Below, in pieces: positions 9 through 28,116 of a stretch of 64,000 bases of DNA (positions within the stretch are counted from its first letter, which is position 1; each line of letters starts with the position of its first letter). A program made the position numbers and the translations under genes. The notes below the pieces were generated by a model that was not told the origin of the DNA, did no database searches, and worked only from the letters and a program-made list of their open reading frames with translations. The DNA comes from Candidatus Kapaibacterium sp. (GTDB taxonomy: Bacteria; Bacteroidota; Ignavibacteria; Kapaibacteriales; Kapaibacteriaceae). Location of the stretch: NCBI GenBank assembly GCA_030833725.1, contig JAURGP010000001.1, positions 113,870 to 177,869 on the forward strand, read 5' to 3'.

Positions 9-3000
9 TTACCGCGCAATCACAAATGGCTCTGAGAGCCGACCGGCTGAGCTGGTAAGCACAATCCGATAGCTGCCAGACGCTAATGCTGTTGGCACTG
101 GAATCTGCAGATCACCAGACGGTAGAACACCAGAGTACACTGCAGCAACAACCGTACCGATGGCATCAACAACTTCCACCGTTACCAATTGACCTGCATA
201 GCCTTGCAGCGGCGTGACAACGATCGTACCATCATGACTGCTCACAGGATTCGGAACAACTCCAACTTCTGCAAACATTCCTGACACGGATTGGTCGTTG
301 TCCACATGTGTTGCTCCCGTGGTGCCGAGCAGGCGAATTGTTTTCGTACCGTTGCGCTCGTCGTTGTTGTACACGCGCAACGTACCTGACGAGGAACCTA
401 TCTCCGGGCGGTTATACTCCACCGTCACGTACAGCGTATCTCCCTGATTCAGCGTCGCTGGAAGGGTACGGCTGGTATTCGTCACTGCAAAGTGCCCGCG
501 AATCGAGAAGGCATTCACGCTGTCGATCAGCAATGGAGCATCCGTTGCGGCGGTAATGGCAACGGTTCGCTCAACTGGCTTGATCTCGGCTGTTTCGAAA
601 TAGAGCGTATCTGCCGAGGATGCAATCGTTGGCTTAGGTGCCACGGTGAACTGAATCCAAGCACGGTTGCCGAAGTCCGGCTCGAACACCTTGATAGTGC
701 CACCACCTGATTTGAAGATCAGGCTTCCCGTACCGAGTTGATCACGGATGTACCACAGGTCCAGTCCGTAGCCTTCCTTGTTGATCAACTCGTACTCGTA
801 GCAACCATTATCCAGGTTGTAGTTCTTGGTGTACGTTGTGTTGTCCGCAAGGTTCTTTCCGGAGTCGATGATGCTGTCGGTGTCTACCTTGCGCAGCACC
901 CACTCGTACTGTTGCGCGGCAAAGTTGTTCGTCTTCAACTGGATTTCCAGATCGCTATAGTAGACCGGTGGCATCACAGCTGTACGAATCTGCTTGTTGT
1001 TCTGGGCGTACTCATCCGTGCCACCGTTGGGCGCGTTGATCGATACGACGAACTCAAAGGCACCTTCCTCCGATGGCCAGGCAGGAATTGGTAAGGCAAC
1101 GGTATCCTTCTGCAGAAAGTCCAGCTCGCCAGTCCACTCAAACGTCGACTCGTTCGCATCTCCAGCTGCATAGATGATGGTTGCGCGTGTCAGCCGCGTG
1201 GAGCCGGTGTTCTGGATCACGATAAGGGGCTCACCACAGATGGGATTCAAGCGCTGATAGTACTCCCAGGTATTGGGTCGGATGATGTCGACGACGGCTG
1301 CATCAAGCTGGAAGTTGGGATCACCATAGCCAATCAACTGACCGGTGACATCCCACACGCCCCAACTCTCGGGATCGGCTCCTTTATCCACGCCATAGTC
1401 GATCGCCACGGTTGTACCTGGAACAGCCAGTGAGGATGGCAGCTCGTGGTTGTACAGATCCACGGGAGCTCCTGGACACCATCCCGTGCGATCGATGTTC
1501 CATGTACCTCCCTGAGGGTAGACAGGATTGTCGCCGCACTCCGTCCAGAGCAGCCATTCATGTGTGCGCTCCTGGTTAACTCCGATCCAGTGAATGCGTT
1601 GACAGAACTCGGCACAGTTCGTGGGATTGTCGAAACGGTGGCCACTGGACCACGTCTTCACGCGGAACATGCTAGCTTCCTGACTCAACGTTACGTCCAC
1701 AGGAGCCAGTGCCGTTCCAGACAGAACGTTGGTGAAGTCGGCATTGCGATCGCTCCAGAGCTGATCGATTTGCTTGACGTCGCGTGGCGGTGTGCCGGTA
1801 ATGAACTTGAAGGTCAGGTCGATCAACTCCTGCTGATTACCCGCGCTAATGGTAACGTTGTTCCGCAGAATCGGTGCATAGTCCGTAACGTCGAACAGCC
1901 ACTTGAAGCCCTGCGGTCCAAGGTCCAGACCAATGCCATAGGGCGTGATGTACCGGCCAATCTCATACACCACAATCGGATCAAACCACGGTTGTTGCTT
2001 GCGGTAGAGCACATTCTCTGGCGCTACCAGTACCGAGTCCTTTACCAGTCCAGCTTCATCGATCACATACTGCCAACCTGCTACCTGAACCGTGATGGTG
2101 TCGATCGCCAGGGTTGGATAGTCTGCATCCTCTGGTCGATGAATGCGTGGCTCAACATCGTTACGGAAGAGGATCACGCTCGAGCGGCGCGCTTCCTGAT
2201 CCACAATGATGGTGCCGGGAGTGACCGAGGCAGGGAATGAACCTGCTTCAAAGGCAAGTACCGGTCGTGCCGTACTGGCAGCCGTGAGGTATCCGAGGTA
2301 GGTATCCATCAGTTGGATGCGCGTTGGCAAGCCAAATAATTCAGCGTGCGCTCCGATGCTAGATGCGTCGCGGGCCATCGTTGGGTCGGTGTCCGTTTCG
2401 GCATTGTAGTAGGCTACCAGATTCTCGGCCTTGGGGTGCAGATCGGTGATGCCACGGTGCATCCACGCACGGATGTCATCGGCCGACAACGCGGTGTTCC
2501 ATACCTGCATTTCATCGAGGATGCCCGGGTAGGAGCCAGCAGCACCAGCTCCAAACATGAACTTCGTGATGCCGGTCATCGGAAGTGTTTTTCCCGTTCC
2601 GGACAGCACCGACTGACCATTGCGGTACACCACCATTTCGCCCGTTGAGGCATTCTTGACAAAGGCCCAGTGATTCCATGCACCTCCCGTAGCTCCGGCG
2701 GGCATCGGCCCTTCAATACGATCCATCGATCCACCGGTTCGTCCGGCATCCCAGTACAGGTTGCCATTCGACCATGGCAGATGGGCATTCAGTACACGCC
2801 GACCCTGGGCATCGAAGGCCTCAAACACGTTGTTGTTTACCGGGAAGGCGCGTTCATTTCCGTAGGCCCAGAAGGCAATGGTGATCTGATTCGTCAGCGT
2901 GGCGGCAACGCTAGCTGGCAGGGTCATCTGATCACCGGCCTGAAAGGCATAGGCACGACGCGATCCGTCATCAACAATACCATTGGAACCGGAGGGGGCT

Positions 3001-3809
3001 GCCCCAGCTTCGAGACGAATCACGGATGGAGCGTTCAGGCACGACATCTCCACAACAAGATTCGATGTTCCGTCCCAGATGAACGGTGCTTCAAAGGCCA
3101 GGTCGTTCGGGCCGTCGTCGATGTTCACCGTGCGACGGATACACCGCTGATACTGAAGATTCGAGAGAATCGAGGGTACGACGTTCTCCGTTGTTTGAGC
3201 AATGCGAACGGTGAACAGCTGAACGTTGTCGACACTATCGAGAGAGGTCAGGCGAAGTCCGCTGATCGGTCCGGCTGAGAGTCCGGCTGCCGTCAGCTCC
3301 GAGGCTCTCCAGAGGTATCGCACACGGCTACCGCCAGGAATCAGGATGCCGTTGTTGACAAAACCTGACGTTCCCACCTGCGACCAGTCACCGGATCCAG
3401 AGCTTCGACTGACGCTCCGGTTGACGAACAACCTGCGCTGCGGGACAAAGCTGGACGTGTAGGCAAGACTATCCGGTGTTGAGCCCCCTACACGATAGTT
3501 CACTTGCACTCGACGCGTCGAGTCGAACTCGCCCGTTGAGTCTGTCACCATCGTGTAGGTGAGGTAATCCCACTCACCGCAAGGGAAGCGGTCCTGCGTG
3601 GTACGAGCATCGCACTTCAGCGTATACTCCATCAGGACCTTCTCGTACGATCCAGGCGGTGGAAACTGCCACGTTCCCGACCGTTTCGTGATATCGTCGA
3701 AGGTGAGTGTCCGTACCGTAATGGTGTCCTGCGCATGCAGACAGGAGACACTGACGACAAGTTGGAGCAGAAGAACGGACAGAACACGATGTACCAAGCG
3801 CATAGTCAC
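9..3809 (-). CDS. T9SS-secreted multidomain protein with PNGase F-like (peptide N-glycanase) domains and an inserted LamG/ConA-like domain
   Basis: 1266-aa ORF. N-terminal signal peptide (MRLVHRVLSVLLLQLVVSVSCLHAQ). Segments CGEWDYLTY, EIGRYITPYGIG, CAEFCQRIHWIGVN and GTWNIDRTGWCPGAPVD closely parallel Elizabethkingia PNGase F motifs (CDEWDRY, EIGRFITPYWVG, CAEWCFRTHTIAIN, GNWAPDRAGWCPGMAVP). Central block ITIAFWAYG...WNHWAFV...VVYRNGQ is LamG-like. C-terminus (VVPNPVSSHDGTIVV...SGSYRIVLTSSAGRL) fits a T9SS CTD. Confidence 0.7.
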   Translation of the reverse strand: MTMRLVHRVLSVLLLQLVVSVSCLHAQDTITVRTLTFDDITKRSGTWQFPPPGSYEKVLMEYTLKCDARTTQDRFPCGEWDYLTYTMVTDSTGEFDSTRRVQVNYRVGGSTPDSLAYTSSFVPQRRLFVNRSVSRSSGSGDWSQVGTSGFVNNGILIPGGSRVRYLWRASELTAAGLSAGPISGLRLTSLDSVDNVQLFTVRIAQTTENVVPSILSNLQYQRCIRRTVNIDDGPNDLAFEAPFIWDGTSNLVVEMSCLNAPSVIRLEAGAAPSGSNGIVDDGSRRAYAFQAGDQMTLPASVAATLTNQITIAFWAYGNERAFPVNNNVFEAFDAQGRRVLNAHLPWSNGNLYWDAGRTGGSMDRIEGPMPAGATGGAWNHWAFVKNASTGEMVVYRNGQSVLSGTGKTLPMTGITKFMFGAGAAGSYPGILDEMQVWNTALSADDIRAWMHRGITDLHPKAENLVAYYNAETDTDPTMARDASSIGAHAELFGLPTRIQLMDTYLGYLTAASTARPVLAFEAGSFPASVTPGTIIVDQEARRSSVILFRNDVEPRIHRPEDADYPTLAIDTITVQVAGWQYVIDEAGLVKDSVLVAPENVLYRKQQPWFDPIVVYEIGRYITPYGIGLDLGPQGFKWLFDVTDYAPILRNNVTISAGNQQELIDLTFKFITGTPPRDVKQIDQLWSDRNADFTNVLSGTALAPVDVTLSQEASMFRVKTWSSGHRFDNPTNCAEFCQRIHWIGVNQERTHEWLLWTECGDNPVYPQGGTWNIDRTGWCPGAPVDLYNHELPSSLAVPGTTVAIDYGVDKGADPESWGVWDVTGQLIGYGDPNFQLDAAVVDIIRPNTWEYYQRLNPICGEPLIVIQNTGSTRLTRATIIYAAGDANESTFEWTGELDFLQKDTVALPIPAWPSEEGAFEFVVSINAPNGGTDEYAQNNKQIRTAVMPPVYYSDLEIQLKTNNFAAQQYEWVLRKVDTDSIIDSGKNLADNTTYTKNYNLDNGCYEYELINKEGYGLDLWYIRDQLGTGSLIFKSGGGTIKVFEPDFGNRAWIQFTVAPKPTIASSADTLYFETAEIKPVERTVAITAATDAPLLIDSVNAFSIRGHFAVTNTSRTLPATLNQGDTLYVTVEYNRPEIGSSSGTLRVYNNDERNGTKTIRLLGTTGATHVDNDQSVSGMFAEVGVVPNPVSSHDGTIVVTPLQGYAGQLVTVEVVDAIGTVVAAVYSGVLPSGDLQIPVPTALASGSYRIVLTSSAGRLSEPFVIAR

Positions 3810-3868
3810 ACAGCGATGGTGAAGAAAAGCACTGTTATGAATCCGAAAAGTACGGAATCAGTGCTTGA

Positions 3869-4633
3869 TCAGTGCTTGGCTACGCCGCCATCGACGTTGA
3901 TTGTCTGACCCGTAATGATCCCGGAAGCCGGCAAGGCAAGGAAGGCAACCACGTTGGCAATATCCTCGGGCTCATCGGCCCTGTGAACCGCTTGGGTAGG
4001 CAGGATGTGTTCCAGCATCGTGGAGCTGACACCACCATCGCGGGCACTCTGCGTGGCGGTCAAGCCCACGCTGATGGAATTGACGGTAATCCCGTACTTG
4101 CCTACCTCCGACGCAAGAGATCGCGTGAGTCCGATCACACCCATCTTCGCCGTAACGTAGTGGGTGAGGTAGGGCGAACCAAGCCAGACAGTGTCGCTGC
4201 TGAAGGAGATGATCCGACCGAACCCTGCTGCCTTCATATGCGGAAGAACCACCTTGATGGTATGGAACAGCGTATGAAGGGTGAGGTTGATCGTTTGCTC
4301 CCATTCGTCGAAGTTCAGCAGATCAAACGGCTCCTCGTGGTAGTAGCCTACGTTGTGCACCAGAATGTCAATCCTACCGAAGGCCTCCATTGCCACATCA
4401 GCAACCCGTTGGGCATCTGCAGGCTTCAGGAGATCGGCCTGCACACTTACCACCGTCCCGCCTTGGGCCCGAAGGGCCTCGGCAAGGTCGGTGGCATCAA
4501 TCACGTCGGCAATCACCAGACGCGCGCCCTCTTGCACCAGACGTTCGCAGAAGGCACGGCCATTACCAACGGCAGCGCCGGTCACAATCGCTACCCGATC
4601 GTGTAATCCTCGTTCAAACGCTGTGATCTGCAT
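3869..4633 (-). CDS. short-chain dehydrogenase/reductase (classical SDR)
   Basis: 254 aa. TGAAVGNGRA Rossmann motif, catalytic YxxxK (YVTAK) and NVG motif. Sits immediately downstream (same strand) of the alpha-oxoamine synthase. Confidence 0.85.
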   Translation of the reverse strand: MQITAFERGLHDRVAIVTGAAVGNGRAFCERLVQEGARLVIADVIDATDLAEALRAQGGTVVSVQADLLKPADAQRVADVAMEAFGRIDILVHNVGYYHEEPFDLLNFDEWEQTINLTLHTLFHTIKVVLPHMKAAGFGRIISFSSDTVWLGSPYLTHYVTAKMGVIGLTRSLASEVGKYGITVNSISVGLTATQSARDGGVSSTMLEHILPTQAVHRADEPEDIANVVAFLALPASGIITGQTINVDGGVAKH

Positions 4634-4645
4634 GGTGAGGCGTTG

Positions 4646-5839
4646 TTAGGAAATCAGCCCAAGCTCCCGACCCACCTCCTGGAACACGTTCAAGATGGCA
4701 TCGAGATGCTCATCCTCATGCGTAGCCATGTAGCTGGTGCGCAGCATCGACAGATTAGGTGGGACTCCCGGCGGAATGAAGGCATTCACGAACACTCCCT
4801 TGTCGTAGAGCTTTCTCCACATGAGCATCGTACGCTCTACATCACCGAGTACTACCGGTACGATACCGGTGCGACTATCCATAACGGTAAAGCCCATGGC
4901 CTTGAAGCCATCGCGCATTTTGTCGGCATTGTGGAGCAGCTTTTCGATGCGCCACGGCTCCGTCTCGAGAATCTCGAGCGCTGCCAAGGCTGCGGCTACC
5001 GAAGCTGGTGTAGGCGATGCACTGAAAATCAACGCCGGCGAGTGGTGCTTCAGGTAGTTAATCACGCGCTCTGGGCCACCAACGAATCCACCGAGCGAGG
5101 CAAACGTCTTGGAGAACGTGCCCATGGTAAGGTCGGCCTTGTCGATCAGGCCATAGTGCGCAGCCGTGCCACGGCCGCCTGGCCCAACAACGCCCGTAGC
5201 ATGGGCGTCATCCACCAGAATCCTAGCCCCATACTTCTCGGCGACGGCAACCATGTCTGGCAGATTCACCAGCTCTCCCGATACGGAGAACACCCCGTCG
5301 GTTACAATCAGCTTACCAGCAGAATCCGGCACACGCTGGAGAACGCGCTCTAGGTCGTCCATGTCGTTGTGCTTGTAGCGCAGGAACTCAGCAAAGCCGC
5401 CTTTGGCCAACATGCAGGCATTGATAATGCAGGCATGGTTCTCCTTGTCGGAGATGACGTACTCGCCTTTTGAGACCAAGGCCGACACCGTGCCGAGGGC
5501 TGTTTGATACCCAGTGGAGAACAGCAGCACGCTCTCGTAGCCCAGAAATGCAGCGAGTTTCTCCTCCAGTTCATTGTGCAGGTTAATCGTGCCTGTGAGG
5601 TAGCGCGATCCTGAGCAACCGGTGCCGTAGCGCTCGATGGCATCAATAGCTGCCTTCTTCACGCGCGGGTCGGAAGTCAATCCCAGGTAGTTGTTCGAGC
5701 CCGCCATGATCACCGGCCTACCCTCGAGGGTTACGACAGGTCCCTCGTTTTCTTCGACGGCTCTGAAGTAGGGATACAAGCCGGCGGCTTTCACTTCATC
5801 GGCACGCGTGAAGTCGCGACATTTTTGAAACAGATCCAC
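4646..5839 (-). CDS. PLP-dependent alpha-oxoamine synthase family; serine palmitoyltransferase-like (alternatively 2-amino-3-ketobutyrate CoA ligase)
   Basis: 397 aa. PLP-lysine motif [13 protein letters not shown] matches the SPT signature GTFSKS(V/L)G..GGF rather than Kbl GTLGKALG or BioF GTFGKA. The C-terminal region also resembles SPT: [28 protein letters not shown] here versus Sphingomonas SPT GLYVNMARPPATPAGTFLLRCSICAEHT. Confidence 0.8.
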
Positions 5840-5917
5840 GGGAGTCTCCGCTGTACGGTGTGATCGTAATGTAACGTAGCTGCAAAGTTAGTTCGCGAAC
5901 ATGGTAGTTTTGCAGCC

Positions 5918-7387
5918 ATGCTCCTTCGCCAACTCCTGCCGTCGTTTCGGTATGCCACCAGTGACATCCTGGCAGGAATCGTTGTATTTCTAGTTGCGTT
6001 GCCGCTGTGTCTGGGAATTGCACTCGCCTCGGGAGCGCCACTCATGAGCGGGCTGATTGCCGGCATCATTGGTGGTACGATCCTTGCGCTCTTCTCTGAC
6101 TCGGAATTGAGTGTGAGCGGCCCAGCTGCAGGCCTAGCAGTTGTCGTACTAGGGGCTATCAACACGTTGGGCGGTTTTCAGACCTTCCTGGCTGCTGTGG
6201 TAGTAGCTGGTGTGATCCAGATCATCCTAGGTTGGGTGAAGGCGGGCGTCCTTGCAGAGTACGTCCCCAATAGTGTCATTCGCGGGATGCTGGCCGGCAT
6301 CGGTGTGGTCATCATCCTGAAGCAGGTCCGGCATCTCATTGGCTGGAGCAACGATATCATCGACCCGGGATCAGCAATCGTGGGCGGTACCTGCCTCACA
6401 GTGTTGTTGGTGTGGGACCTGCCGATTGGACCAATGCGAAGTTTGTCCAAGAAGATTCCCGGCCCTCTGGTAGCTGTGGTCCTAGGTACCCTCCTCAGCC
6501 AGGCACTTCATTTGGTCGCTCCTGCGTGGGCGATTTCCGATACTGCAGCGTTCGTTCAGATTCCAACAGACGTGACGCTGTTCAGCATGGTGACGCTGCC
6601 GTCAATGGCGGCCTTTGCGATCCCACAGGTATGGCTGTCGGGTGCAGCCATTGCTCTGATTGCCAGCATCGAAACACTCATGTCCATCGAGGCAACCGAC
6701 AAGCTCGATCCCTTGAAGCGTATCTCTGACTCCAACCAAGAGCTTCGGGCTCAGGGCATTGGTAACGTGGTGTCGGGTTTGGTAGGGGGCTTACCACTCA
6801 CTGCCGTCATTATTCGATCATCGACGAACGTCTATGCTGGTGGCATGACCCGACTGTCGGCCATGATACAGGGCTTGCTGATTCTCATTAGTATCCTTCT
6901 CGTCCCAGAGATCTTGAACCTGATACCGCTGGCGGCTCTCGCTGCCGTACTTGTGTCAGTTGGATACAAGCTGACCTCGCTTACGGTGCTCCGCAACGCG
7001 ATGAGGCATGGGCTTGATCAGTCCCTGCCCTTCATCGCCACGATCATTGCCGTGGTGCTCACCGACCTGCTGACGGGTATTGGTATCGGTCTGCTGGTTA
7101 GCATGTTTTGGGTGATTCGTAACAACCTACACTCCGCCGTGAGCCTCGAAGAGAACAACGGACGATGGATTGTGCGCCTGAACAAAGACGCGTTGTTTGT
7201 GAACAAGTCGGAGCTGAAGCGTGCGTTACGCTCTATTCCCAGCGACGCCCAGGTAACTATTGACGGGACGTTGGCCAGGATGATCGATCGCGATATCTAC
7301 GAGACGATCCAGGAGTTTGCCGAAGGAGCGGAGTACCGTAGCATCACGGTGGACTACGTCAACGTGTTCGGTAAACGCACGAAGTAA
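5918..7387 (+). CDS. SulP family inorganic anion (sulfate/bicarbonate) transporter with C-terminal STAS domain
   Basis: 489 aa, multiple TM helices, SulP-type N-terminal motifs (DILAGIVVFLVALPLCLGIALASG), C-terminal STAS-like domain. Confidence 0.85.
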   Translation: MLLRQLLPSFRYATSDILAGIVVFLVALPLCLGIALASGAPLMSGLIAGIIGGTILALFSDSELSVSGPAAGLAVVVLGAINTLGGFQTFLAAVVVAGVIQIILGWVKAGVLAEYVPNSVIRGMLAGIGVVIILKQVRHLIGWSNDIIDPGSAIVGGTCLTVLLVWDLPIGPMRSLSKKIPGPLVAVVLGTLLSQALHLVAPAWAISDTAAFVQIPTDVTLFSMVTLPSMAAFAIPQVWLSGAAIALIASIETLMSIEATDKLDPLKRISDSNQELRAQGIGNVVSGLVGGLPLTAVIIRSSTNVYAGGMTRLSAMIQGLLILISILLVPEILNLIPLAALAAVLVSVGYKLTSLTVLRNAMRHGLDQSLPFIATIIAVVLTDLLTGIGIGLLVSMFWVIRNNLHSAVSLEENNGRWIVRLNKDALFVNKSELKRALRSIPSDAQVTIDGTLARMIDRDIYETIQEFAEGAEYRSITVDYVNVFGKRTK

Positions 7388-8097: not shown

Positions 8098-11000
8098 TTA
8101 CCAACACATCACGGTAGCACGGTATGTTGAACCGTCAGGACTGCTAACGGTAAGACCATACACCCCAGCAGCAAGGTGCGATGTGTTGATCACCTGCTCG
8201 CCATTAATCGACCGCTGGAGGACCACGCGTCCAGCGGCGTCTACCATGGTCAGCTGAGCCTGTGTGGCACGAATCCAGAGATTGGTTCCGTCCATTCGAT
8301 GCTCGATAGCTTCACTGCGGTCTTCCTGAACACTCACCACCCTGCGTTCAGCTTGTAACAGGATTGGCTCACCCAGCCAACCGCAGGAATCCACGGCAAT
8401 GCGCAGCTCACCGCTTGCCGAACCGTCGGCCTGCATCTGTGATGGGCGGAACCAGACCGTGAACGGTGCATCCGTGTTGGTTGGCAGTGTGGCGCCAACG
8501 CTCAGATCCGTGCGGAACGGTCCCGTGATCTGCACATTCGAGATCCGCGCGGGCCAAGCCTTGTTGGTGATGATGCGAAGACTTGTATCGATACGTACAT
8601 CCTCAAGGGCTGGCGAGATTGGATCGTCGAATACCAGTTCCTGCGGTGCCGTCAGTTCGGCTCGTACCCACGGGACGTCCACGGTTTGCTCGATGGTACC
8701 CTCGCACGTTGGCGTCTGGTAGCTCACTAGCAGAACATCGGCTTCGTTCTGGTCGGTGACGGTGCCACGGTATCGCAGACGCACAACGGTAGAGTTGTTA
8801 GCGGGAATGGATGCACCCGACAGTACCTGTAGCGAAACATTACGCGTCTGCAGTCGTGCAGACTGAACGGTGGCACTGGAAGATGTTGTGTTACGGACCA
8901 CAACTTCTAGGATGCGCTCTACGGGTTCATCACACAGCGTTCGTGTTGGAAACGCTGGCCTACCATCGGAGATGTCTACGCCGATGGTCGAGCGCTCACC
9001 CGCGATCGGAATGCGAATGTCGCTGCCACATAGTTCTGCTACAATGATGGTATCAGCTACGGTGGTCGTACCTGTTAGCGTGACCACCACCGGAAGCGTG
9101 TATTGCGCTCCGGGAGCTAGGCGACGCGGCAGTGCGGTGGACTGGGCGGCCCCCTGCGCCGCCGTCACACCCGTGAGTGTGGCCGTATCAGCTCCGCGAT
9201 TGATGACAGTAACCGTGGTTTCGAAAATGTTCTCACATGGATCCAGATCTGGTACGGCAATGGAAGCCGTGATGGACTGGACGTTGACCATACGAACCGG
9301 TACGAACACTGCTGCGGTGTCTGCGCACAGAGATGGCGTAACAGCGATCGCCGTATACGTAACAGCAAACGGTGTGGATGTTGTGATGGTTCTGCCAGTG
9401 CCAATCGATTGATTGTTTGCGTACCACGTCACGGTCACAGGGTCCTGCGATGCAATACGCGCTTCTAACTCAAACGTCTGATTCGGGCACGGTTTTGTAG
9501 GCGGCGTACCAACAGTAACCGTTGGCGAGGGAAGAACAACCACATTCGTGGACAACGCTCGTGTACAGGCGTTGGCGTCGGTGACTACTAGCGCGACCGT
9601 CTGATTGCGTTGCGGAACAAACGTGAGTGTGGAATCGGGACGTGTGACATTCACATCACTGCCCGACCATGCAAACGTGTACGGTGGCGTGCCCCCTACC
9701 TGAGCCACATTGATCGTAAGTGGTTGGCCGGCACACACCTCATACGTGTTCTCTACCGATGGTGTGAGTTCTGGCAACACGATGAGTTGCGTTGTAACTG
9801 CACGCTCGCATCCGTTGGCATCTGTAATGGTTGCCGTCAACAGCTGATCATCAACAGGAACAAAGCTGAAGCTCGTACCCGTCACGGTGGTATCGACCTG
9901 TGCAGACTTCCAGTTCACGGAGTAGGGGGCTGTCCCACCGGGAGTCACGATTTGAAGAATCGCGGCTTCGCCGCCGCACACGTCCATGGTAGACTCCATG
10001 GTGGCGGTAAGCGCAGGGTGAACCGTCAAGGAAGCTGTGAGCGTCTTGGTGCAGTTCTTTGCATCGGTGATGACAGCGGTTAGCGTTCCCGATGTTGCGA
10101 ATGTTCGGGTAAGTGCACCCGTGGCTGTGGTAGTGTCCACGTTCGGTGCCGTCCAGCGTACGGTGTAGGGTGCGGTTCCACCCATCGTGCCAAGCGAAAG
10201 GGCGAGCGCCTCACCGCCACATACTTCGAAACTCGAACTCATCGTTGCCGTGATCTGAGGATGAACCGTCACTACCACGGTATCACGTCGCACCACTCCC
10301 AGATCATCCGTCACTGTGAGAACATAGGACGTTGTTGTGGTTGGAGTTGCCACGGGGGTAAGTGTCGTAGCTCCCGTAAGTCCCGTAGTGGGGAGCCATG
10401 AGTAGGCATACGGTGTTGTACCTCCGCTTACCGTTCCCGACAACGTGGTGGAGTTTCCGAAGCAAACACTCACATCGGATCCAGCAGCTACGGTCATGTC
10501 GCTGATCATCGTCAAGCAGGTTGCATCTTCCAACTTGCCTTCCAGCAGGATCTGCACCGTAGGATGAAACTGCAGCGAAATCCCACCAGTCGTGAGGTGA
10601 CAGTAGCTCATGATCGTGCCCGTCTTGGGTACTGTCTGTGTGAAACAGTTACCATCTTCGGCGGCGTAACAACTGTCTAGAGCCGGATTCCATGTGCACG
10701 AATGCGTGTGGCGCGAACCTACGTTGTGACCCAGCTCGTGTGCCGTCACCTCGGTATCCCAGGCATAGGTTGTGCGCGGATACGTGTACACGTTATCCAA
10801 GCCACTCACGCCAAAGCCGAAGTTGTTGCACAGGCCATTCAAGTAGGCGATACCCCCGATGTTGTTGATGCCGCTGAACAGATGCACTACACTGCGTTCC
10901 ACGTTGGTGTGGTTATTGAGCCAGTACGTTCGCAGCTGCGTGAGCAGTGTGGCCGTAGTGGTGCCGGGGTAGGGGTCGGTGGTCGTGAAAATCGTCAGGT

Positions 11001-11763
11001 CGCTGATGTTCAGCACGGCATCGACGTCGCGATCATACAACGCGCTCACGGCAGCAATCACTGCTTCGGCGTAGTCGGTGGCATTTGCGAGGTTGCTGCC
11101 ATGGTCGAGGTAGTAGTTGTAGTCGCATTCCAGGGCAATGTCGATACGGTACTTCGACCCAGCCTGTGTAGACTCCCCACGTTTCCGTACTGGGCGATCC
11201 GGCAGTTCGGGTAGGTCGTCCGTGCTGCACCACCACGGTTCAGGTTTCTGCAGGTCGCTGTTCAGCACAACGGCAATGGGCGCTGGTCGGGCAGTATTGA
11301 GAGGACTCAAGTGATACGTTGGTTCAGCCCCCTTCACCATCGAGATGGTTCCGACAGCATACCCTGCGTACACGGACATCATGACATACGACTCGGGGTG
11401 GCCTTCAACGATTCCTGCCAAATGAACACTCTGAGGTGGAGCTACGGTAACCACACCTTGATCCGTTACAGCACGAATCTTCGTGGTTTCACTGATCACC
11501 CGATGGCGACGCAGATTCAGGGTAAGGGGCTGCCCATCAGGTACGGGCAGCTGGATGCGCACCTCGGCGTCGTCAGGTAGCGCCCGCACCTCCGAGAACA
11601 CGGCACCATTCACCTGCACAATCGGTCGTGAAGCAGGCAACGTAGCAGGCCGCTCCGAACTCGGCAGTTGATGGATCGTGAACAGCGATTGTTGAGCGGC
11701 AACGCAATCGTGCACCGTTGCCATCAGCACACATGCAAGGGCGAGAACAGGTAGCAGCTTCAT
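8098..11763 (-). CDS. T9SS-secreted metzincin-type zinc metalloprotease with 5-6 tandem Ig-like repeat domains
   Basis: 1221 aa. Signal peptide. HELGHNVGSRH matches HExxHxxGxxH. Repeated ~95-aa modules (TVHPQITATM..CGGEALAL.., TVHPALTATM..CGGEAAIL.., LPELTPSVEN..CAGQPLTI..). C-terminal T9SS CTD (AAGVYGLTVSSPDGSTYRATVMCW). Confidence 0.75.
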   Translation of the reverse strand: MKLLPVLALACVLMATVHDCVAAQQSLFTIHQLPSSERPATLPASRPIVQVNGAVFSEVRALPDDAEVRIQLPVPDGQPLTLNLRRHRVISETTKIRAVTDQGVVTVAPPQSVHLAGIVEGHPESYVMMSVYAGYAVGTISMVKGAEPTYHLSPLNTARPAPIAVVLNSDLQKPEPWWCSTDDLPELPDRPVRKRGESTQAGSKYRIDIALECDYNYYLDHGSNLANATDYAEAVIAAVSALYDRDVDAVLNISDLTIFTTTDPYPGTTTATLLTQLRTYWLNNHTNVERSVVHLFSGINNIGGIAYLNGLCNNFGFGVSGLDNVYTYPRTTYAWDTEVTAHELGHNVGSRHTHSCTWNPALDSCYAAEDGNCFTQTVPKTGTIMSYCHLTTGGISLQFHPTVQILLEGKLEDATCLTMISDMTVAAGSDVSVCFGNSTTLSGTVSGGTTPYAYSWLPTTGLTGATTLTPVATPTTTTSYVLTVTDDLGVVRRDTVVVTVHPQITATMSSSFEVCGGEALALSLGTMGGTAPYTVRWTAPNVDTTTATGALTRTFATSGTLTAVITDAKNCTKTLTASLTVHPALTATMESTMDVCGGEAAILQIVTPGGTAPYSVNWKSAQVDTTVTGTSFSFVPVDDQLLTATITDANGCERAVTTQLIVLPELTPSVENTYEVCAGQPLTINVAQVGGTPPYTFAWSGSDVNVTRPDSTLTFVPQRNQTVALVVTDANACTRALSTNVVVLPSPTVTVGTPPTKPCPNQTFELEARIASQDPVTVTWYANNQSIGTGRTITTSTPFAVTYTAIAVTPSLCADTAAVFVPVRMVNVQSITASIAVPDLDPCENIFETTVTVINRGADTATLTGVTAAQGAAQSTALPRRLAPGAQYTLPVVVTLTGTTTVADTIIVAELCGSDIRIPIAGERSTIGVDISDGRPAFPTRTLCDEPVERILEVVVRNTTSSSATVQSARLQTRNVSLQVLSGASIPANNSTVVRLRYRGTVTDQNEADVLLVSYQTPTCEGTIEQTVDVPWVRAELTAPQELVFDDPISPALEDVRIDTSLRIITNKAWPARISNVQITGPFRTDLSVGATLPTNTDAPFTVWFRPSQMQADGSASGELRIAVDSCGWLGEPILLQAERRVVSVQEDRSEAIEHRMDGTNLWIRATQAQLTMVDAAGRVVLQRSINGEQVINTSHLAAGVYGLTVSSPDGSTYRATVMCW

Positions 11764-12447: not shown

Positions 12448-13767
12448 ATGTCCTTACCCATAGCTGTTGCCTTCATCTTAGGATTCGTGATCGGTGCTGG
12501 AACCCTTTGGGTTCTTGTAGCCAAGCGATTGCGCACACCTGCCAGCATCTCCGACACGCTCGTAGCCGATCTGCGCCATATGGAGGATACCATCAACCAT
12601 CTGCGCACGGAAGTGGAACGTGAGCGTCACGAAGGTAAGACCCTGTTCGGACAACTTGAAGCGCGGAAGCAGGAAATAGCTTCGTTGCGAGAGCAGCTTG
12701 AACAGCAGCGTAACGTTGAGGATGTGATGCAGCGGGCCTTCCGCGACATTGCCAACGAGGGATTGCTCCAGCAGGGCCAACGCTTGAGCGAGCAGCAGCA
12801 GCGCGCACTTGGAGAGGTACTGGAACCTTTTCGAGTACGCCTGAAAGAGTTTCAGGAGCGCGTAGATGCCAACCAGCAGGTGGCTGTTCAAACGAATGCC
12901 GAATTGATGGAGCGCATTCGTACGCTCACGGACTTGAACCAGGCGGTGTCGGCCGAAGCGCAGAATCTTACGCGCGCACTTAAAGGCGACAACAAAGCCG
13001 CGGGAACATGGGGCGAGGTAGTATTGGACCGTATTCTCGAGGCAAGCGGGCTAACGAAGGAGCTGAACTATCGCACTCAGCACACCACCACAAACGTGGA
13101 TGGCGTTACGATCAAGCCAGATGTGATTGTTGATCTTCCCGATCACAAACACATCATCATCGACTCGAAACTCTCGCTCCAGGCCTACGATCGGTATAGT
13201 AGTCTGGACGATGGTGCACCGGGCAAGGAGGATGCCCTCAGAGCCCATGTGAACTCGATCAAGCAACACATTGCCGGACTCTCGGAGAAGCACTACCACA
13301 CCGGAGCTGGCCTGAACAGCCCGGAGTTCGTGCTCATGTTCTTCCCGGTGGAGCCCACGTTCTCGGCAACAATCGGTAACACGGACCTGTACGAGTATGC
13401 GTGGGAGCGGCACATCGTGATGGTAAGTCCCAGCACTCTCCTTGCCACGCTCAGAACAATTGCATCGATGTGGCGCATCGAGCATCAGAATCAGAATGCG
13501 CTGGACATCGCTGCACGCGCCGGGAAACTGTACGACAAGTTTGTGAACTTCGTTGCGGATCTGGAGGCGATCCGCGCAGGCGTTCAGAAAACGGAGAAGA
13601 GCGTGGACGACGCCTTCAACAAGCTGATTTCTGGAAGCGGAAACCTGATCGGTCAGGTGGAAAAGCTCAAGAGCTTGGGGGCAAAAGCACAGAAGCAGTT
13701 GCCGCGGCAACTGCTTCTTGAAGGTGACGGTCTTGAGGAAGAAAACCCTACAGAGCCTATGATGTAG
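12448..13767 (+). CDS. rmuC: DNA recombination protein RmuC
   Basis: 439 aa. N-terminal TM, long coiled-coil region, then conserved RmuC C-terminal domain. Confidence 0.8.
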   Translation: MSLPIAVAFILGFVIGAGTLWVLVAKRLRTPASISDTLVADLRHMEDTINHLRTEVERERHEGKTLFGQLEARKQEIASLREQLEQQRNVEDVMQRAFRDIANEGLLQQGQRLSEQQQRALGEVLEPFRVRLKEFQERVDANQQVAVQTNAELMERIRTLTDLNQAVSAEAQNLTRALKGDNKAAGTWGEVVLDRILEASGLTKELNYRTQHTTTNVDGVTIKPDVIVDLPDHKHIIIDSKLSLQAYDRYSSLDDGAPGKEDALRAHVNSIKQHIAGLSEKHYHTGAGLNSPEFVLMFFPVEPTFSATIGNTDLYEYAWERHIVMVSPSTLLATLRTIASMWRIEHQNQNALDIAARAGKLYDKFVNFVADLEAIRAGVQKTEKSVDDAFNKLISGSGNLIGQVEKLKSLGAKAQKQLPRQLLLEGDGLEEENPTEPMM

Positions 13768-14647
13768 CCACAGAGGTTCCCTCTTGATGCATCTGCTTTA
13801 TCCGCTCCAATCGCATCGACTTCGTCCGAAACTTCGGCACGAAGGGGGCTAGGAAGTACACACGGATAATGTACCACCAGAAACTCCGCTCGATCAGAGC
13901 TGGGTCGATCTTGTCGGCTACTTCGGCATGCAGCTCTGGAGCCTTGCTCCAGTGCGAGCCGGCTTTGTCGTGGTGGACGGTATGGAATCCGTTGTTGAAG
14001 AGCATTTTGTTCAGGAAGCCGGTGAAGTTCCGTGAGTGGTTGTACACGGACTCTTCGTCGGCATGGACGTGCTGGACGTAGTTGAAGACGAGAACGCTAA
14101 ACAAACCCACCTGCTGTGGAATGATCACGTACAGAAGAGCCTTCTGCCAGTCCAGGATCAGAAAGGTGATGATCCACACCGCCAACGCAACGTACTGACC
14201 GAAGGCCAACCAGAACTTGCGGCGATCACCTCTCCAGAGGTTACGGAGATAGTCGCGGATGGGCTTCTGTTGGTAGTACGAGCTCATCGTTGGGTACAGC
14301 AACAGCATCAGCAGTGTGTTATTCTCCGTGAGGCGATACGTAATGGTGTAGTCGCCCTCGCGATTGTTCATGCGATGGTGGTTCATGTTGTGCGTAGGGA
14401 TCCACGCAAAGGCTGGGAAGCCATAGAACACCGTTAACCAGTAATCGGTCAGGTGGTTCAGGAATGGCTTCTTCCAGATGGGTAGGTGGTTGTGGTTATG
14501 CGCAATCACCGTGACGGCAATCGACAGAAAGAGATACAGAACGTAGAGCACGGGATGAAATCCCACCACGGTCCACTGAAGCGCAAACACTGCGGTAGTC
14601 ACGAGCATGTAGGCCACTGTTCGCAGATCGGCCTGATATCGAAGCAT
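13757..14647 (-). CDS. membrane fatty-acid desaturase family protein
   Basis: 296 aa, multi-TM. Histidine boxes HNHNH, HNMNHH and HTVHH. Confidence 0.7.
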   Translation of the reverse strand: MLRYQADLRTVAYMLVTTAVFALQWTVVGFHPVLYVLYLFLSIAVTVIAHNHNHLPIWKKPFLNHLTDYWLTVFYGFPAFAWIPTHNMNHHRMNNREGDYTITYRLTENNTLLMLLLYPTMSSYYQQKPIRDYLRNLWRGDRRKFWLAFGQYVALAVWIITFLILDWQKALLYVIIPQQVGLFSVLVFNYVQHVHADEESVYNHSRNFTGFLNKMLFNNGFHTVHHDKAGSHWSKAPELHAEVADKIDPALIERSFWWYIIRVYFLAPFVPKFRTKSMRLERIKQMHQEGTSVATS

Positions 14648-26176: not shown

Positions 26177-27289
26177 GTGGGCATCCCGGAGCTATCTTCC
26201 CCAATGGACAGCCCCCTCAATCAACGACTCACCTTTCTAGGCGGCGGTGTAGCGGCAAGTATCTATACGATTATTGCCCGCGCTGTGTGGAGCTCTTCGG
26301 AACTGACCGTTTCGGTCATCGATCCCACTGAACAGCCCCCAGAGAGAACGCTGTGTGTGTGGGGTGCACCGAGTCCACTTCTCGAAGACGCGGTTGTAGC
26401 GCAGTGGTCGAAGCTCTGTTTTGGCTACGGTACAGACACCATCACTGTTGACCTTGACACCTGGTCCTACCGTCAGTATACGGCATCGTCGCTTCGACAG
26501 CTAGCTGAGCGAATGGGTCCCATTCACCGCATTACGGCCATGGCTGATGATCCAAGTGACGAATCTGTACTCCACCTTGACAGTCGTCCACACCAGCCTG
26601 TGTCGCAGCCTGCTTCGGTTGAGTTGCTGCAGCATTTTCATGGTCGGAGAATTCGCACATCGAAGGACATCTTTCAGCCAGACACAGCCGTGATGATGGA
26701 CTTTCGTACGGACCAATCAGACGGCATCTGTTTTCTGTACGTGCTTCCGTATAGCAGCACCGAGGCCTTGGTAGAGTGTACGGCCTTTAGTCCGGCGGTG
26801 TGGGACGTGGATCAGTACGCCCATCGCTTGGACACCTACATCGAGCTCGAGCTTGGATGCTCGGACTACGAGGTTCTGGCTACTGAGACAGGTGTGATCC
26901 CGATGAATGATCGTAGTGTCGATCGTAATCGTGGACGCAACTGGATTGTGATTGGAAGTGCTGGAGCACTCACCAAACCAACCACGGGATACATGGTGGC
27001 ACGCTGTCTTCGGGACGCTACATCCCTCTTTGTAGATGCGAAGCGCTCTGGACGCATGTCTGTACCTAGTGCGCCTCCATCTCGATTCGCGTGGTACGAC
27101 AAACTCCTCCTCAGGATCATGCGAGATGAGCCTGAGGTTGTTCCGCTCATCTTGTGGACGCTATTCAAGCGAAACCCTATTCATCGCATTCTGTCGTTTC
27201 TTGACGAGCAAACGTCACTGCGTCAGGAGGTCCTTCTGTTTCTCAGGTTACCATGGATGCCCTTTCTTCGAGCTATCGTTCGGCAGTAG
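26177..27289 (+). CDS. crtY: lycopene cyclase (CrtY/CrtL family)
   Basis: 370 aa. N-terminal dinucleotide-binding-like region. Conserved lycopene cyclase motif ICFLYVLPYS. Overlaps the downstream Blh-like gene. Confidence 0.7.
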   Translation: MGIPELSSPMDSPLNQRLTFLGGGVAASIYTIIARAVWSSSELTVSVIDPTEQPPERTLCVWGAPSPLLEDAVVAQWSKLCFGYGTDTITVDLDTWSYRQYTASSLRQLAERMGPIHRITAMADDPSDESVLHLDSRPHQPVSQPASVELLQHFHGRRIRTSKDIFQPDTAVMMDFRTDQSDGICFLYVLPYSSTEALVECTAFSPAVWDVDQYAHRLDTYIELELGCSDYEVLATETGVIPMNDRSVDRNRGRNWIVIGSAGALTKPTTGYMVARCLRDATSLFVDAKRSGRMSVPSAPPSRFAWYDKLLLRIMRDEPEVVPLILWTLFKRNPIHRILSFLDEQTSLRQEVLLFLRLPWMPFLRAIVRQ

Positions 27290-28116
27290 TCTACGTCGGT
27301 TCGGCCCTGATCCTCGTGGCCCTGACAACGCTTCTGCCATCGGCCGTAGTGGTGTTGTCCGTGCTGCTGATTTCACTGGGTGGTGTTCCTCATGGCGCGG
27401 TGGATCTCCATCTCACACTTCCAGGTGCACAGAGGTGGCGTGAGTTGGCTGTCTACCTGGTAAGCATGAGCGCTGTTCTACTAGGATGGTACCTGTCGTC
27501 ACCAGTGATGCTGGCGTTCTTTCTTGTGAACTCAGCGTGGCACTTCGGTGATTGCGACTTGTCCACACCACATGCGGCTAAGCCGGTACTTGCACTCGTG
27601 TATGGACTTGCCGTGTTGTTGGTTGTGATCAACCCTCTAGATCCATCGATCTACTGGATTCTGGAGGATTTGATTGGCCAAGCTGACCTGAGTTCCTTCG
27701 TTACCATCATCGAGCCGTACCTCGTACCGATGCGGATAATCGCAATGGTTCTTGTTGTGGCTGTGCCGGTGAGTACGAACCACACTACACGTATCGCAGC
27801 TCTTGTTCGCGGGATACTGATTGTTGGTATGGGGCTGATGGCACCGTCTCTGGTAGCGTTTACGTGGTACTTCGTGGTCATCCACTCATGGACGAGTTTA
27901 TCGCGGTTACGATTCTACGTGTCGGCTAACGAGCCGTGGACATGGCGCAGACTGATCGTGGCTGCTGCACCGCTCTCTGTGGTTACCTATGCAGGGGTCG
28001 TGATCGGTTTCCTGCTGCTGCCCATCTCGTCTCTCACGGCACTTCTCTTCGTTGCACTGAGTGCGCTCACCCTACCCCATAGCCGACTGTTCAGCCGGGT
28101 GTATGCGTCGAGGTGA
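27253..28116 (+). CDS. blh: Brp/Blh family beta-carotene 15,15'-dioxygenase-like membrane protein (retinal synthesis)
   Basis: 287 aa, 7-8 TM. Conserved His motifs GGVPHGAVDL and NSAWHFGDCD resemble Brp/Blh HGAxD and HFG boxes. Translationally coupled to crtY, which is the canonical pairing. Confidence 0.55.
   Translation: MDALSSSYRSAVVYVGSALILVALTTLLPSAVVVLSVLLISLGGVPHGAVDLHLTLPGAQRWRELAVYLVSMSAVLLGWYLSSPVMLAFFLVNSAWHFGDCDLSTPHAAKPVLALVYGLAVLLVVINPLDPSIYWILEDLIGQADLSSFVTIIEPYLVPMRIIAMVLVVAVPVSTNHTTRIAALVRGILIVGMGLMAPSLVAFTWYFVVIHSWTSLSRLRFYVSANEPWTWRRLIVAAAPLSVVTYAGVVIGFLLLPISSLTALLFVALSALTLPHSRLFSRVYASR

Follow-up and report, generated by a model that had tools for sequence, protein, structure and literature searches.

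A 64,000-nucleotide stretch of DNA from the uncultured Candidatus Kapaibacterium sp. (Bacteroidota/Chlorobi group; contig JAURGP010000001.1, positions 113,870 to 177,869 of the forward strand; called the window below, with coordinates counted from its first letter) holds exactly two open reading frames (ORFs) at 3869–5839, both on the minus strand. The first (4646..5839, minus) has a GTG start and encodes an alpha-oxoamine synthase (AOS) of 397 amino acids (aa) that resembles serine palmitoyltransferase (SPT; Spt in bacteria). The second (3869..4633, minus) has an ATG start and encodes a classical short-chain dehydrogenase/reductase (SDR) of 254 aa, a candidate 3-keto reductase. An SPT condenses serine with an acyl thioester, the reaction that starts sphingolipid (ceramide) synthesis and commits the pathway. 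The identification of AOS as an SPT is supported, and that of the SDR as a 3-ketodihydrosphingosine reductase (KDSR) is a plausible and reasonable inference.

The limits of both ORFs agree with a first-pass annotation of this DNA, and the pyridoxal phosphate (PLP)-lysine motif quoted there is present in the AOS translation. The SDR indeed follows AOS at once on the same strand, but the spacer, from the AOS stop codon TAA to the SDR start codon ATG, measures 12 nt (4634..4645, minus) and not the 13 bp then reported. Translated from the GTG start, AOS begins with MDLFQKCR, the N-terminus common to AOS homologues. AOS matches Pfam Aminotran_1_2 (PF00155, E=2e-54) and the SDR matches adh_short and adh_short_C2 (E=1e-52); each has hundreds of full-length homologues, and both are therefore regarded as real genes. 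A terminator scan of 3600–6200 found no intrinsic-terminator-like structure, and a 12-nt spacer without a terminator implies that AOS and SDR would be co-transcribed as a two-gene operon.

Identity of the alpha-oxoamine synthase

Of the NCBIfam models, NF047600 SerpalmtaseCFB (the SPT of Bacteroidota) ranked best against AOS with 483 bits, about 100 bits clear of other families; the runners-up were the BioF/Kbl subfamily model (387 bits), BioF (385), betaproteobacterial SPT (368) and Kbl (363). Among structures in the PDB the best match was the Sphingobacterium multivorum SPT (SmSPT; 3a2b/8guh) at 397 bits, followed by the Sphingomonas SPT (SpSPT) at 283; Thermus BioF/Kbl (260 bits), Kbl (about 250) and BioF (about 195–203) scored lower. 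In a common profile alignment AOS is 47.0% identical to SmSPT, 39.5% to SpSPT, 34.6% to Escherichia coli Kbl and 31.9% to E. coli BioF. The superfamily hallmarks GTFSK (with the PLP lysine), NHAC and VDDAH align with SmSPT and SpSPT. In SmSPT, PLP and L-serine are held by Asn52, Ser81, His138, Ser185, Asp210, His213, Thr241 and Lys244 (PMC10196870), and all eight residues are kept in AOS when it is aligned with SmSPT. AOS thus shares with the S. multivorum enzyme, and with the NF047600 family, a full-length alignment (47%), the PLP-lysine motif, the active-site residues and the form of a soluble protein of about 400 aa, and in the tree it groups with SmSPT at deep nodes of very low bootstrap; it differs in coming from Kapabacteria and in its model score, which is taken up below.

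The sulfonolipid pathway of Bacteroidota follows the same logic, an AOS and then an SDR-type keto-reductase, with a cysteate acyltransferase (SulA/CapB/CFAT) and a 3-ketocapnine reductase (CapC/KCR) (PMC9304779, PMC11211663). The sole reported active-site difference between Spt and SulA is the replacement of an Ala by Lys281, 30 residues past the catalytic lysine (PMC9304779). At this position the window AOS has Ala (GTFSK...LIFSAS), aligned with Ala274 of SmSPT, and its scores against the cysteate acyltransferase structures 28EH and 7U7H are 239 and 213 bits, versus 397 bits for SPT. The Ala excludes a cysteate acyltransferase as far as sequence allows, and with the scores it led us to reject this identity (SulA/CapB/CFAT) for AOS.

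A neighbour-joining tree of 192 sequences was built, with ALAS, CqsA and the cysteate acyltransferases left to comparison by hidden Markov model and PDB bit scores only. The window AOS, all orthologues from Kapabacteria, Ignavibacteria and Chlorobiota, and the AOS of Aureispira form one clade with a bootstrap of 100. SmSPT, SpSPT and the AOS of a Streptomyces cluster join this clade ahead of E. coli Kbl and BioF, at deep nodes with very low bootstraps. The first-pass annotation had placed AOS nearer to bacterial SPT than to Kbl or BioF; model and structure scores, the Ala/Lys discriminator, the tree, and the gene clusters and fusions described in the next section all agree with this. In the phylogeny it had proposed as a check, the clade with Aureispira is firm, and Kbl and BioF join last at deep nodes without support.

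Homologues of both AOS and SDR at 65–100% identity come almost only from metagenome-assembled genomes (MAGs) labelled Kapabacteria/Kapaibacterium, Ignavibacteria, Chlorobi or Bacteroidota; one species-representative contig (L021) carries an AOS with 98% identity to that of the window. Several AOS homologues are named 8-amino-7-oxononanoate synthase by JGI, which is an automatic annotation. More widely, the SPT-like AOS enzymes form a very large radiation, of which AOS is a member and in which many proteins are fused to other domains.

Ceramide gene clusters around AOS orthologues

The surroundings of AOS orthologues were surveyed in an AOS-centred scan of one genome per species (80 loci, AOS identity 67–98%) by ORF calling, clustering and tblastn. 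A cerR-like gene of about 330 aa lies divergently upstream of AOS in 28 of the 80 loci (Ignavibacteria/Chlorobiota-type, AOS 67–72% identical), and a bCerS-like gene of 373 aa lies directly downstream of AOS in 22. The upstream protein is an extended SDR of the NAD-dependent epimerase/dehydratase family (PF01370, 3Beta_HSD) with NDUFA9 among its PDB matches; in the downstream protein two GNAT stretches were recognised, and none of the NCBIfam models matches it. CerR has been described as an NDUFA9-like reductase and bCerS as an N-acyltransferase, which together with Spt form the bacterial ceramide pathway and are often encoded in clusters (PMC11087976, PMC11334938, PMC11324152). Because an extended SDR and a double-GNAT protein fit these descriptions, the two neighbours are regarded as CerR-like and bCerS-like.

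The identity of the GNAT-like family was checked by a search of annotated plasmids and chromids, which yielded full-length homologues at 36–45% identity in Streptomyces, Roseomonas mucosa and Aureispira. The Streptomyces homologue is encoded inside an AOS-GNAT-epimerase operon. In Roseomonas mucosa the gene directly follows two LptF/LptG paralogues, an order that mirrors the Caulobacter sphingolipid locus CC_1156–CC_1154, in which CC_1154 is cerS (PMC11324152). Aureispira has the layout oxidoreductase, AOS, GNAT-like gene, as in Ignavibacteria, and the cerR-like protein of Ignavibacteria is 45% identical to the Aureispira reductase (E=1e-105) and 30% to the Streptomyces reductase (E=1e-44). 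The arrangement of the cerR-spt-bcerS set, known in Caulobacter as CC_1164/CC_1162/CC_1154 (Stankeviciute et al. 2022, as cited in PMC11334938 and PMC11087976), is found likewise around AOS orthologues in Ignavibacteria, Chlorobiota and Aureispira, with some of them fused to the bCerS-like protein. Such in-frame AOS-bCerS-like fusions are encoded at L092, P0243, P0250 and P0376 (947, 777, 780 and 919 aa, respectively); at L092 (5566–8409) a single ORF of 947 aa runs without interruption through AOS and bCerS-like domain. Two bCerS-centred loci, P0487 and P0510, have the canonical order cerR / spt-bcerS-ilvE and are not of the Kapabacteria type. The bCerS-like gene is also carried by the cultured Melioribacter and Rosettibacter.

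This context of its orthologues is the strongest evidence for the identity of AOS. Bracketed as it is by genes embedded in ceramide clusters, the window AOS is likely an Spt, and we consider it very probable that it is a functional orthologue of bacterial Spt. Spt-like genes have already been predicted in about 40 phyla (PMC11334938); the window AOS adds a new member to this known family.

Compact clusters with a divergent cerR and spt-bcerS were recorded in Ignavibacteria and Chlorobiota at loci L066–L100 (e.g., L093, 4900–8386; L066, 4772–9267), L184 (7571–12100) and L185 (7728–11920). They are often trailed by a gene for a branched-chain amino-acid aminotransferase (ilvE); its position behind spt-bcerS suggests that these clusters may make iso-branched sphingolipids. 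Four further proteins of 600–664 aa (P0391–P0394), one of them labelled Planctomycetaceae, have two tandem bCerS-like modules each.

The short-chain dehydrogenase/reductase

The SDR is a complete classical SDR, with TGAAVGNG, HNVG, the Ser in FSSDT and YVTAK (YxxxK), and without a signal peptide. NCBIfam returned 219 family matches, all of them under cutoff (best, pyridoxal 4-dehydrogenase, 208 versus 325 bits), so no function could be read from these models. The closest relative of solved structure is the NAD-dependent (S)-1-phenylethanol dehydrogenase (PED) of Aromatoleum aromaticum (2EW8; 189 bits, 41% identity), which is like the SDR in length, in the C-terminal VDGGxxxH and in the IAD motif where beta-2 ends. 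PED belongs to betaproteobacterial anaerobic ethylbenzene catabolism; the window, in contrast, gives no hint of that pathway, and the partner of the SDR is an Spt.

Two families of sphingolipid reductases were compared with the SDR. CerR is an epimerase-fold extended SDR of about 300–330 aa, and membership in this family was rejected when the SDR gave no significant similarity (E>1) to the cerR-like proteins of Ignavibacteria, Aureispira and Streptomyces. The second family is represented by BT_0972, human FVT1 and yeast TSC10, with sequences taken from the supplement of PMC9278070. These are classical SDRs with a Ser-Tyr-Lys centre like the SDR of the window, and the reaction proposed for the latter, 3-keto reduction of the Spt product, would be the same. 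Membership here was rejected as well, at an identity of 24–25% and with an NAD-type Asp where these proteins have Arg. The SDR thus falls, by sequence comparison, outside both known reductase families, CerR and BT_0972/KDSR. Its own orthogroup is sharply bounded, with members at 53% identity or more and the next SDRs at 40% or less.

The first-pass annotation had taken an SPT followed by a classical SDR as the arrangement expected for an SPT-KDSR pair. This is not supported, since known clusters pair spt with the extended SDR CerR and with bCerS (PMC11087976, PMC11334938), and the gene of the only characterised bacterial KDSR of the classical SDR type, BT_0972, is not clustered with spt (PMC9278070), whereas the SDR of the window, so distant from BT_0972 and opposite in its cofactor residue, is in the spt operon.

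Conservation of the gene pair in relatives

An SDR orthologue lies directly downstream of AOS in 30 of the 80 AOS-centred genomes. They comprise every locus of the main synteny group, with AOS at 78% identity or more, together with L078 and L095 at 71–73%. The homologous spacers measure about 6–25 nt in the main synteny group and 71–92 nt in L049, L078 and L095. A second scan of metagenomes, centred on the SDR, collected 59 orthologues at 53–100% identity; of these, 32 have AOS directly upstream, 20 lack it and seven could not be scored, which leaves 32 of 52 scorable loci with the pair. At least three flank contexts that are unrelated to one another keep the adjacency: YajQ-AOS-SDR-LamG/PNGaseF-like-arginase; the loci L078, L095 and L125; and carboxyltransferase-AOS-SDR (L150, L153). 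The counts of both scans, the sharp bounds of the orthogroup and the adjacency in unrelated flanks argue for a functional coupling of AOS and SDR.

In the neighbour-joining tree the SDR-linked loci fall inside a Kapabacteria clade (bootstrap 68), which is sister to the clade linked with cerR/bcerS, and among the 139 loci of the AOS- and SDR-centred scans none has an AOS flanked by both SDR and cerR/bcerS. The window and its Kapabacteria relatives differ from the cerR-spt-bcerS set in this respect: they are without an adjacent cerR or bcerS and have instead a classical SDR directly downstream of spt.

Two loci differ in detail. On a 985-kb metagenome contig (L013, 3957–6765) a DUF559 endonuclease-like gene lies between AOS and SDR, with an HNH gene just downstream. 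At L128 (2741–4768) an SDR orthologue of 71% identity, unlinked to AOS, lies directly downstream of a GT2 glycosyltransferase gene, whose product also matches Glyco_transf_21 (the ceramide-glucosyltransferase family) at 33.8 bits; this placement hints at a lipid context.

MAG records with Kapabacteria-type loci (L021, L024, L032, L034, L043, L055, L058, L070) are titled Hyphomicrobiales, Didemnitutus, Patescibacteria or Chitinophaga pinensis. Such titles probably go back to mistakes of binning or labelling in the records themselves.

Proposed pathway and alternative readings

In the pathway proposed here, the first gene would provide a soluble, PLP-dependent Spt, which makes a 3-keto long-chain base by condensing a long-chain acyl thioester with L-serine, or with alanine or glycine as possible alternatives. 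The second gene would provide a co-translated, cytoplasmic SDR of the NAD(H) type that reduces the 3-keto group with NADH; its substrate could be 3-ketosphinganine or an N-acylated oxo-ceramide, i.e., before or after N-acylation. What the data show is the family of AOS, its orthology to Spt genes of ceramide clusters and the conserved adjacency of the SDR; these substrates, the role of the reductase and an N-acyltransferase encoded elsewhere in the genome are what we infer. The SDR would thereby do the job done elsewhere by the extended SDR CerR, and in Bacteroides by the NADPH-dependent BT_0972.

That the SDR is the keto-reductase of the pathway is drawn from the conservation of the operon alone, and we regard it as possible, at slightly less than an even chance; the role stays plausible because the pairing with AOS is conserved across Kapabacteria. 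For the joint claim, an Spt together with its own keto-reductase, the balance likewise tips narrowly towards doubt. More tentative still, and rather to be doubted, is the wider proposal that Kapabacteria recruited a PED-like, NADH-type SDR as a third, independently evolved sphingoid 3-keto reductase, unrelated to CerR and BT_0972/KDSR, which would take the spt-adjacent slot held by cerR in the sister Ignavibacteria and possibly also its function.

A number of observations weigh against the proposed pathway. The SDR is only 24–25% identical to BT_0972, FVT1 and TSC10 (E=1e-14 to 3e-3), and both its identity to PED and that to BT_3771 (32%), a FabG-like protein that is an unconfirmed KDSR candidate only (PMC9278070), are above this value. 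At the end of beta-2 it has an NAD-type Asp (VIADV), where the three KDSRs have an Arg (GTSR, VARN and VSRS), of the NADPH type, and BT_0972 is NADPH-dependent (PMC9278070 supplement). The adjacency of AOS and SDR is limited to one clade and lost in several Kapabacteria lineages, so that it may represent only few evolutionary events. AOS itself lies under the equivalog cutoff for SPT: of the models considered (NF047600, NF047599 and NF047603), NF047600 has a curated cutoff of 640 bits, versus the 483 bits of AOS, and no NCBIfam model reaches its own curated cutoff with this protein. Ten representatives of neighbouring 50%-identity clusters were tested as well and all fall short of the NF047600 cutoff, which is therefore narrow. 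The deep nodes of the neighbour-joining tree lack support. Finally, the ceramide synthase homologue that the first-pass annotation had proposed to look for did not turn up in the 64-kb window, where tblastn with the Ignavibacteria proteins gave neither a cerR-like nor a bCerS-like gene at E<=1e-3. A profile search with eight bCerS-like proteins had only Ignavibacteria, Kryptoniota and Planctomycetes-type sequences among its best 120 matches, a list crowded with Ignavibacteria, and Pfam and NCBIfam scans of most of the larger ORFs of the window showed no further sphingolipid gene. The absence of cerR and bcerS from the window says little, because the sphingolipid genes of sphingolipid-producing Bacteroidota are known to be non-clustered (PMC11334938).

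The main rival explanation accepts AOS as an Spt and gives the SDR another substrate, e.g., a hydrophobic secondary alcohol or ketone, so that it would be on the transcript by accident or in an accessory role. It fits the nearest characterised relatives of the SDR, which are NAD-dependent catabolic enzymes (PED at 41%, and pyridoxal 4-dehydrogenase), the low identity to KDSRs with the opposite cofactor signature, the roughly 38% of scorable SDR orthologues that are not beside AOS, and the Spt orthologues of Ignavibacteria and several Kapabacteria that have no SDR gene within about 6 kb. It does not sit well with an adjacency that, at very short spacers, outlives a complete exchange of the genes on either side across at least three contexts, nor with a narrow SDR orthogroup that is largely co-distributed with the Kapabacteria Spt clade; the unlinked SDR of L128, directly after a GT2 gene with a GT21 match, is a further hint at a lipid context. 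We judge this explanation to be a serious possibility, although on the unlikely side.

In a further alternative the pair would make a non-sphingolipid amino-ketone or amino-alcohol, with AOS using another amino acid and/or acyl donor and the SDR reducing that product, in a capnine-like or other specialised lipid or metabolite pathway. The substrate choice of AOS enzymes is not reliably readable from sequence, and the score under the SPT cutoff and the large radiation of SPT-like enzymes with their many domain fusions leave room for this. It is made improbable by the orthologues at 67–72% identity in ceramide clusters, some of them fused to bCerS-like acyltransferases, by the Spt-type Ala in place of the cysteate-acyltransferase Lys (PMC9304779), by the serine-contacting residues shared with SmSPT (PMC10196870) and by the 239 and 213 bits against cysteate acyltransferase structures, versus 397 for SPT.

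The threonine pathway that the first-pass annotation had left open as an alternative, in which the SDR would oxidise L-threonine to 2-amino-3-ketobutyrate and AOS, as Kbl, would cleave this to glycine and acetyl-CoA, can claim the NAD-type signature of the SDR, as in an oxidative dehydrogenase, and the 363 bits of AOS against a Kbl model. Kbl as the identity of AOS was nevertheless rejected: both Kbl models are under cutoff (NF005394, 363 versus 460 bits; TIGR01822, 308 versus 493) and outscored by SPT, E. coli Kbl is at 34.6% identity and among the last to join in the tree, no tdh-type gene adjoins AOS in any context examined, and the orthologues lie in ceramide clusters. Threonine dehydrogenases are known as Zn-MDR enzymes or extended GalE-like SDRs, not as PED-like classical SDRs of 254 aa, which counts further against a pathway that we consider very improbable. 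Least credible is a BioF (8-amino-7-oxononanoate synthase) with an unrelated SDR, an identity proposed by the JGI names and by 385 bits against TIGR00858 and rejected because that score is under both the cutoff of 426 and the SPT score, with E. coli BioF at 31.9%, no bioA, bioB or bioD in any AOS context examined and orthologues flanked by cerR and bcerS.

Implications

Bacterial sphingolipid synthesis has been worked out only recently, and its reduction step is contested, CerR being placed after N-acylation and KDSR before it (PMC11087976, PMC9278070). An spt with a different reductase in one lineage and the canonical cerR-spt-bcerS in its sister lineage would be a natural experiment on this step. 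If the SDR is indeed a third reductase, the long-chain base would be reduced in the cytoplasm right after condensation, in a eukaryote-like order. The AOS-SDR pair makes a cheap two-gene construct that is readily testable in E. coli. If the SDR is unrelated to the pathway, what is left is a further Spt orthologue from a phylum whose sphingolipids are already known.

In the literature surveyed, no description was found of a conserved operon of spt and a classical SDR with a PED-like, NAD-type SDR beside spt, and the Black Sea supplements make no mention of Kapabacteria or Ignavibacteria. The gene content described above predicts that Kapabacteria, Ignavibacteria (including the cultured Melioribacter and Rosettibacter) and some Chlorobiota may make sphingolipids, which matters where these lipids serve as environmental biomarkers.

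Upstream region and other features of the window

AOS is separated by a divergent intergenic region of 78 nt (5840..5917) from a SulP-family transporter gene (5918–7387, plus strand), which is transcribed divergently from AOS. A sigma-70 promoter scan gave nothing above shuffle expectation. The pattern TAnnTTTG, which we take to be the -7 promoter consensus of Bacteroidota, occurs upstream of AOS in 20 of 104 distinct homologous upstream regions versus 1 of 104 in-gene control windows, mostly 50–59 nt ahead of the start codon. In the window the motif TAACTTTG (5890..5883, minus) stands 43 nt ahead of the AOS GTG start and is a possible -7 promoter element of the Bacteroidota type.

A gene at 13757–14647 (minus) encodes a 296-aa membrane protein of the fatty-acid-desaturase family (PF00487) without an NCBIfam match. 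It lies about 8 kb from the Spt gene, with unrelated genes between, and is not in the operon; the protein could act on lipids or carotenoids, as a desaturase, hydroxylase or ketolase. At 26177–28116 (plus) an ORF of the lycopene-cyclase family overlaps one for a Brp/Blh-family beta-carotene 15,15'-dioxygenase, which scores above its NCBIfam cutoff. This pair implies that retinal is made; the neighbouring 24.7–26.3 kb showed no rhodopsin-like ORF.

The G+C content of the window is 51–58%. The large genes that flank the AOS-SDR pair carry type-IX secretion system (T9SS) sorting domains. Two genes of the window encode very large secreted proteins. The product of the first (9–3809, minus) has 1266 aa and C-terminal LamG and PNGase-F domains; its gene follows the SDR at a distance of 60 nt, without an intervening terminator, and is syntenic in most relatives. 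The second (8098–11763, minus) codes for an M12 metalloprotease of the reprolysin-like kind, 1221 aa long, in which SprB/Ig repeats and a weak T9SS tail were recognised.

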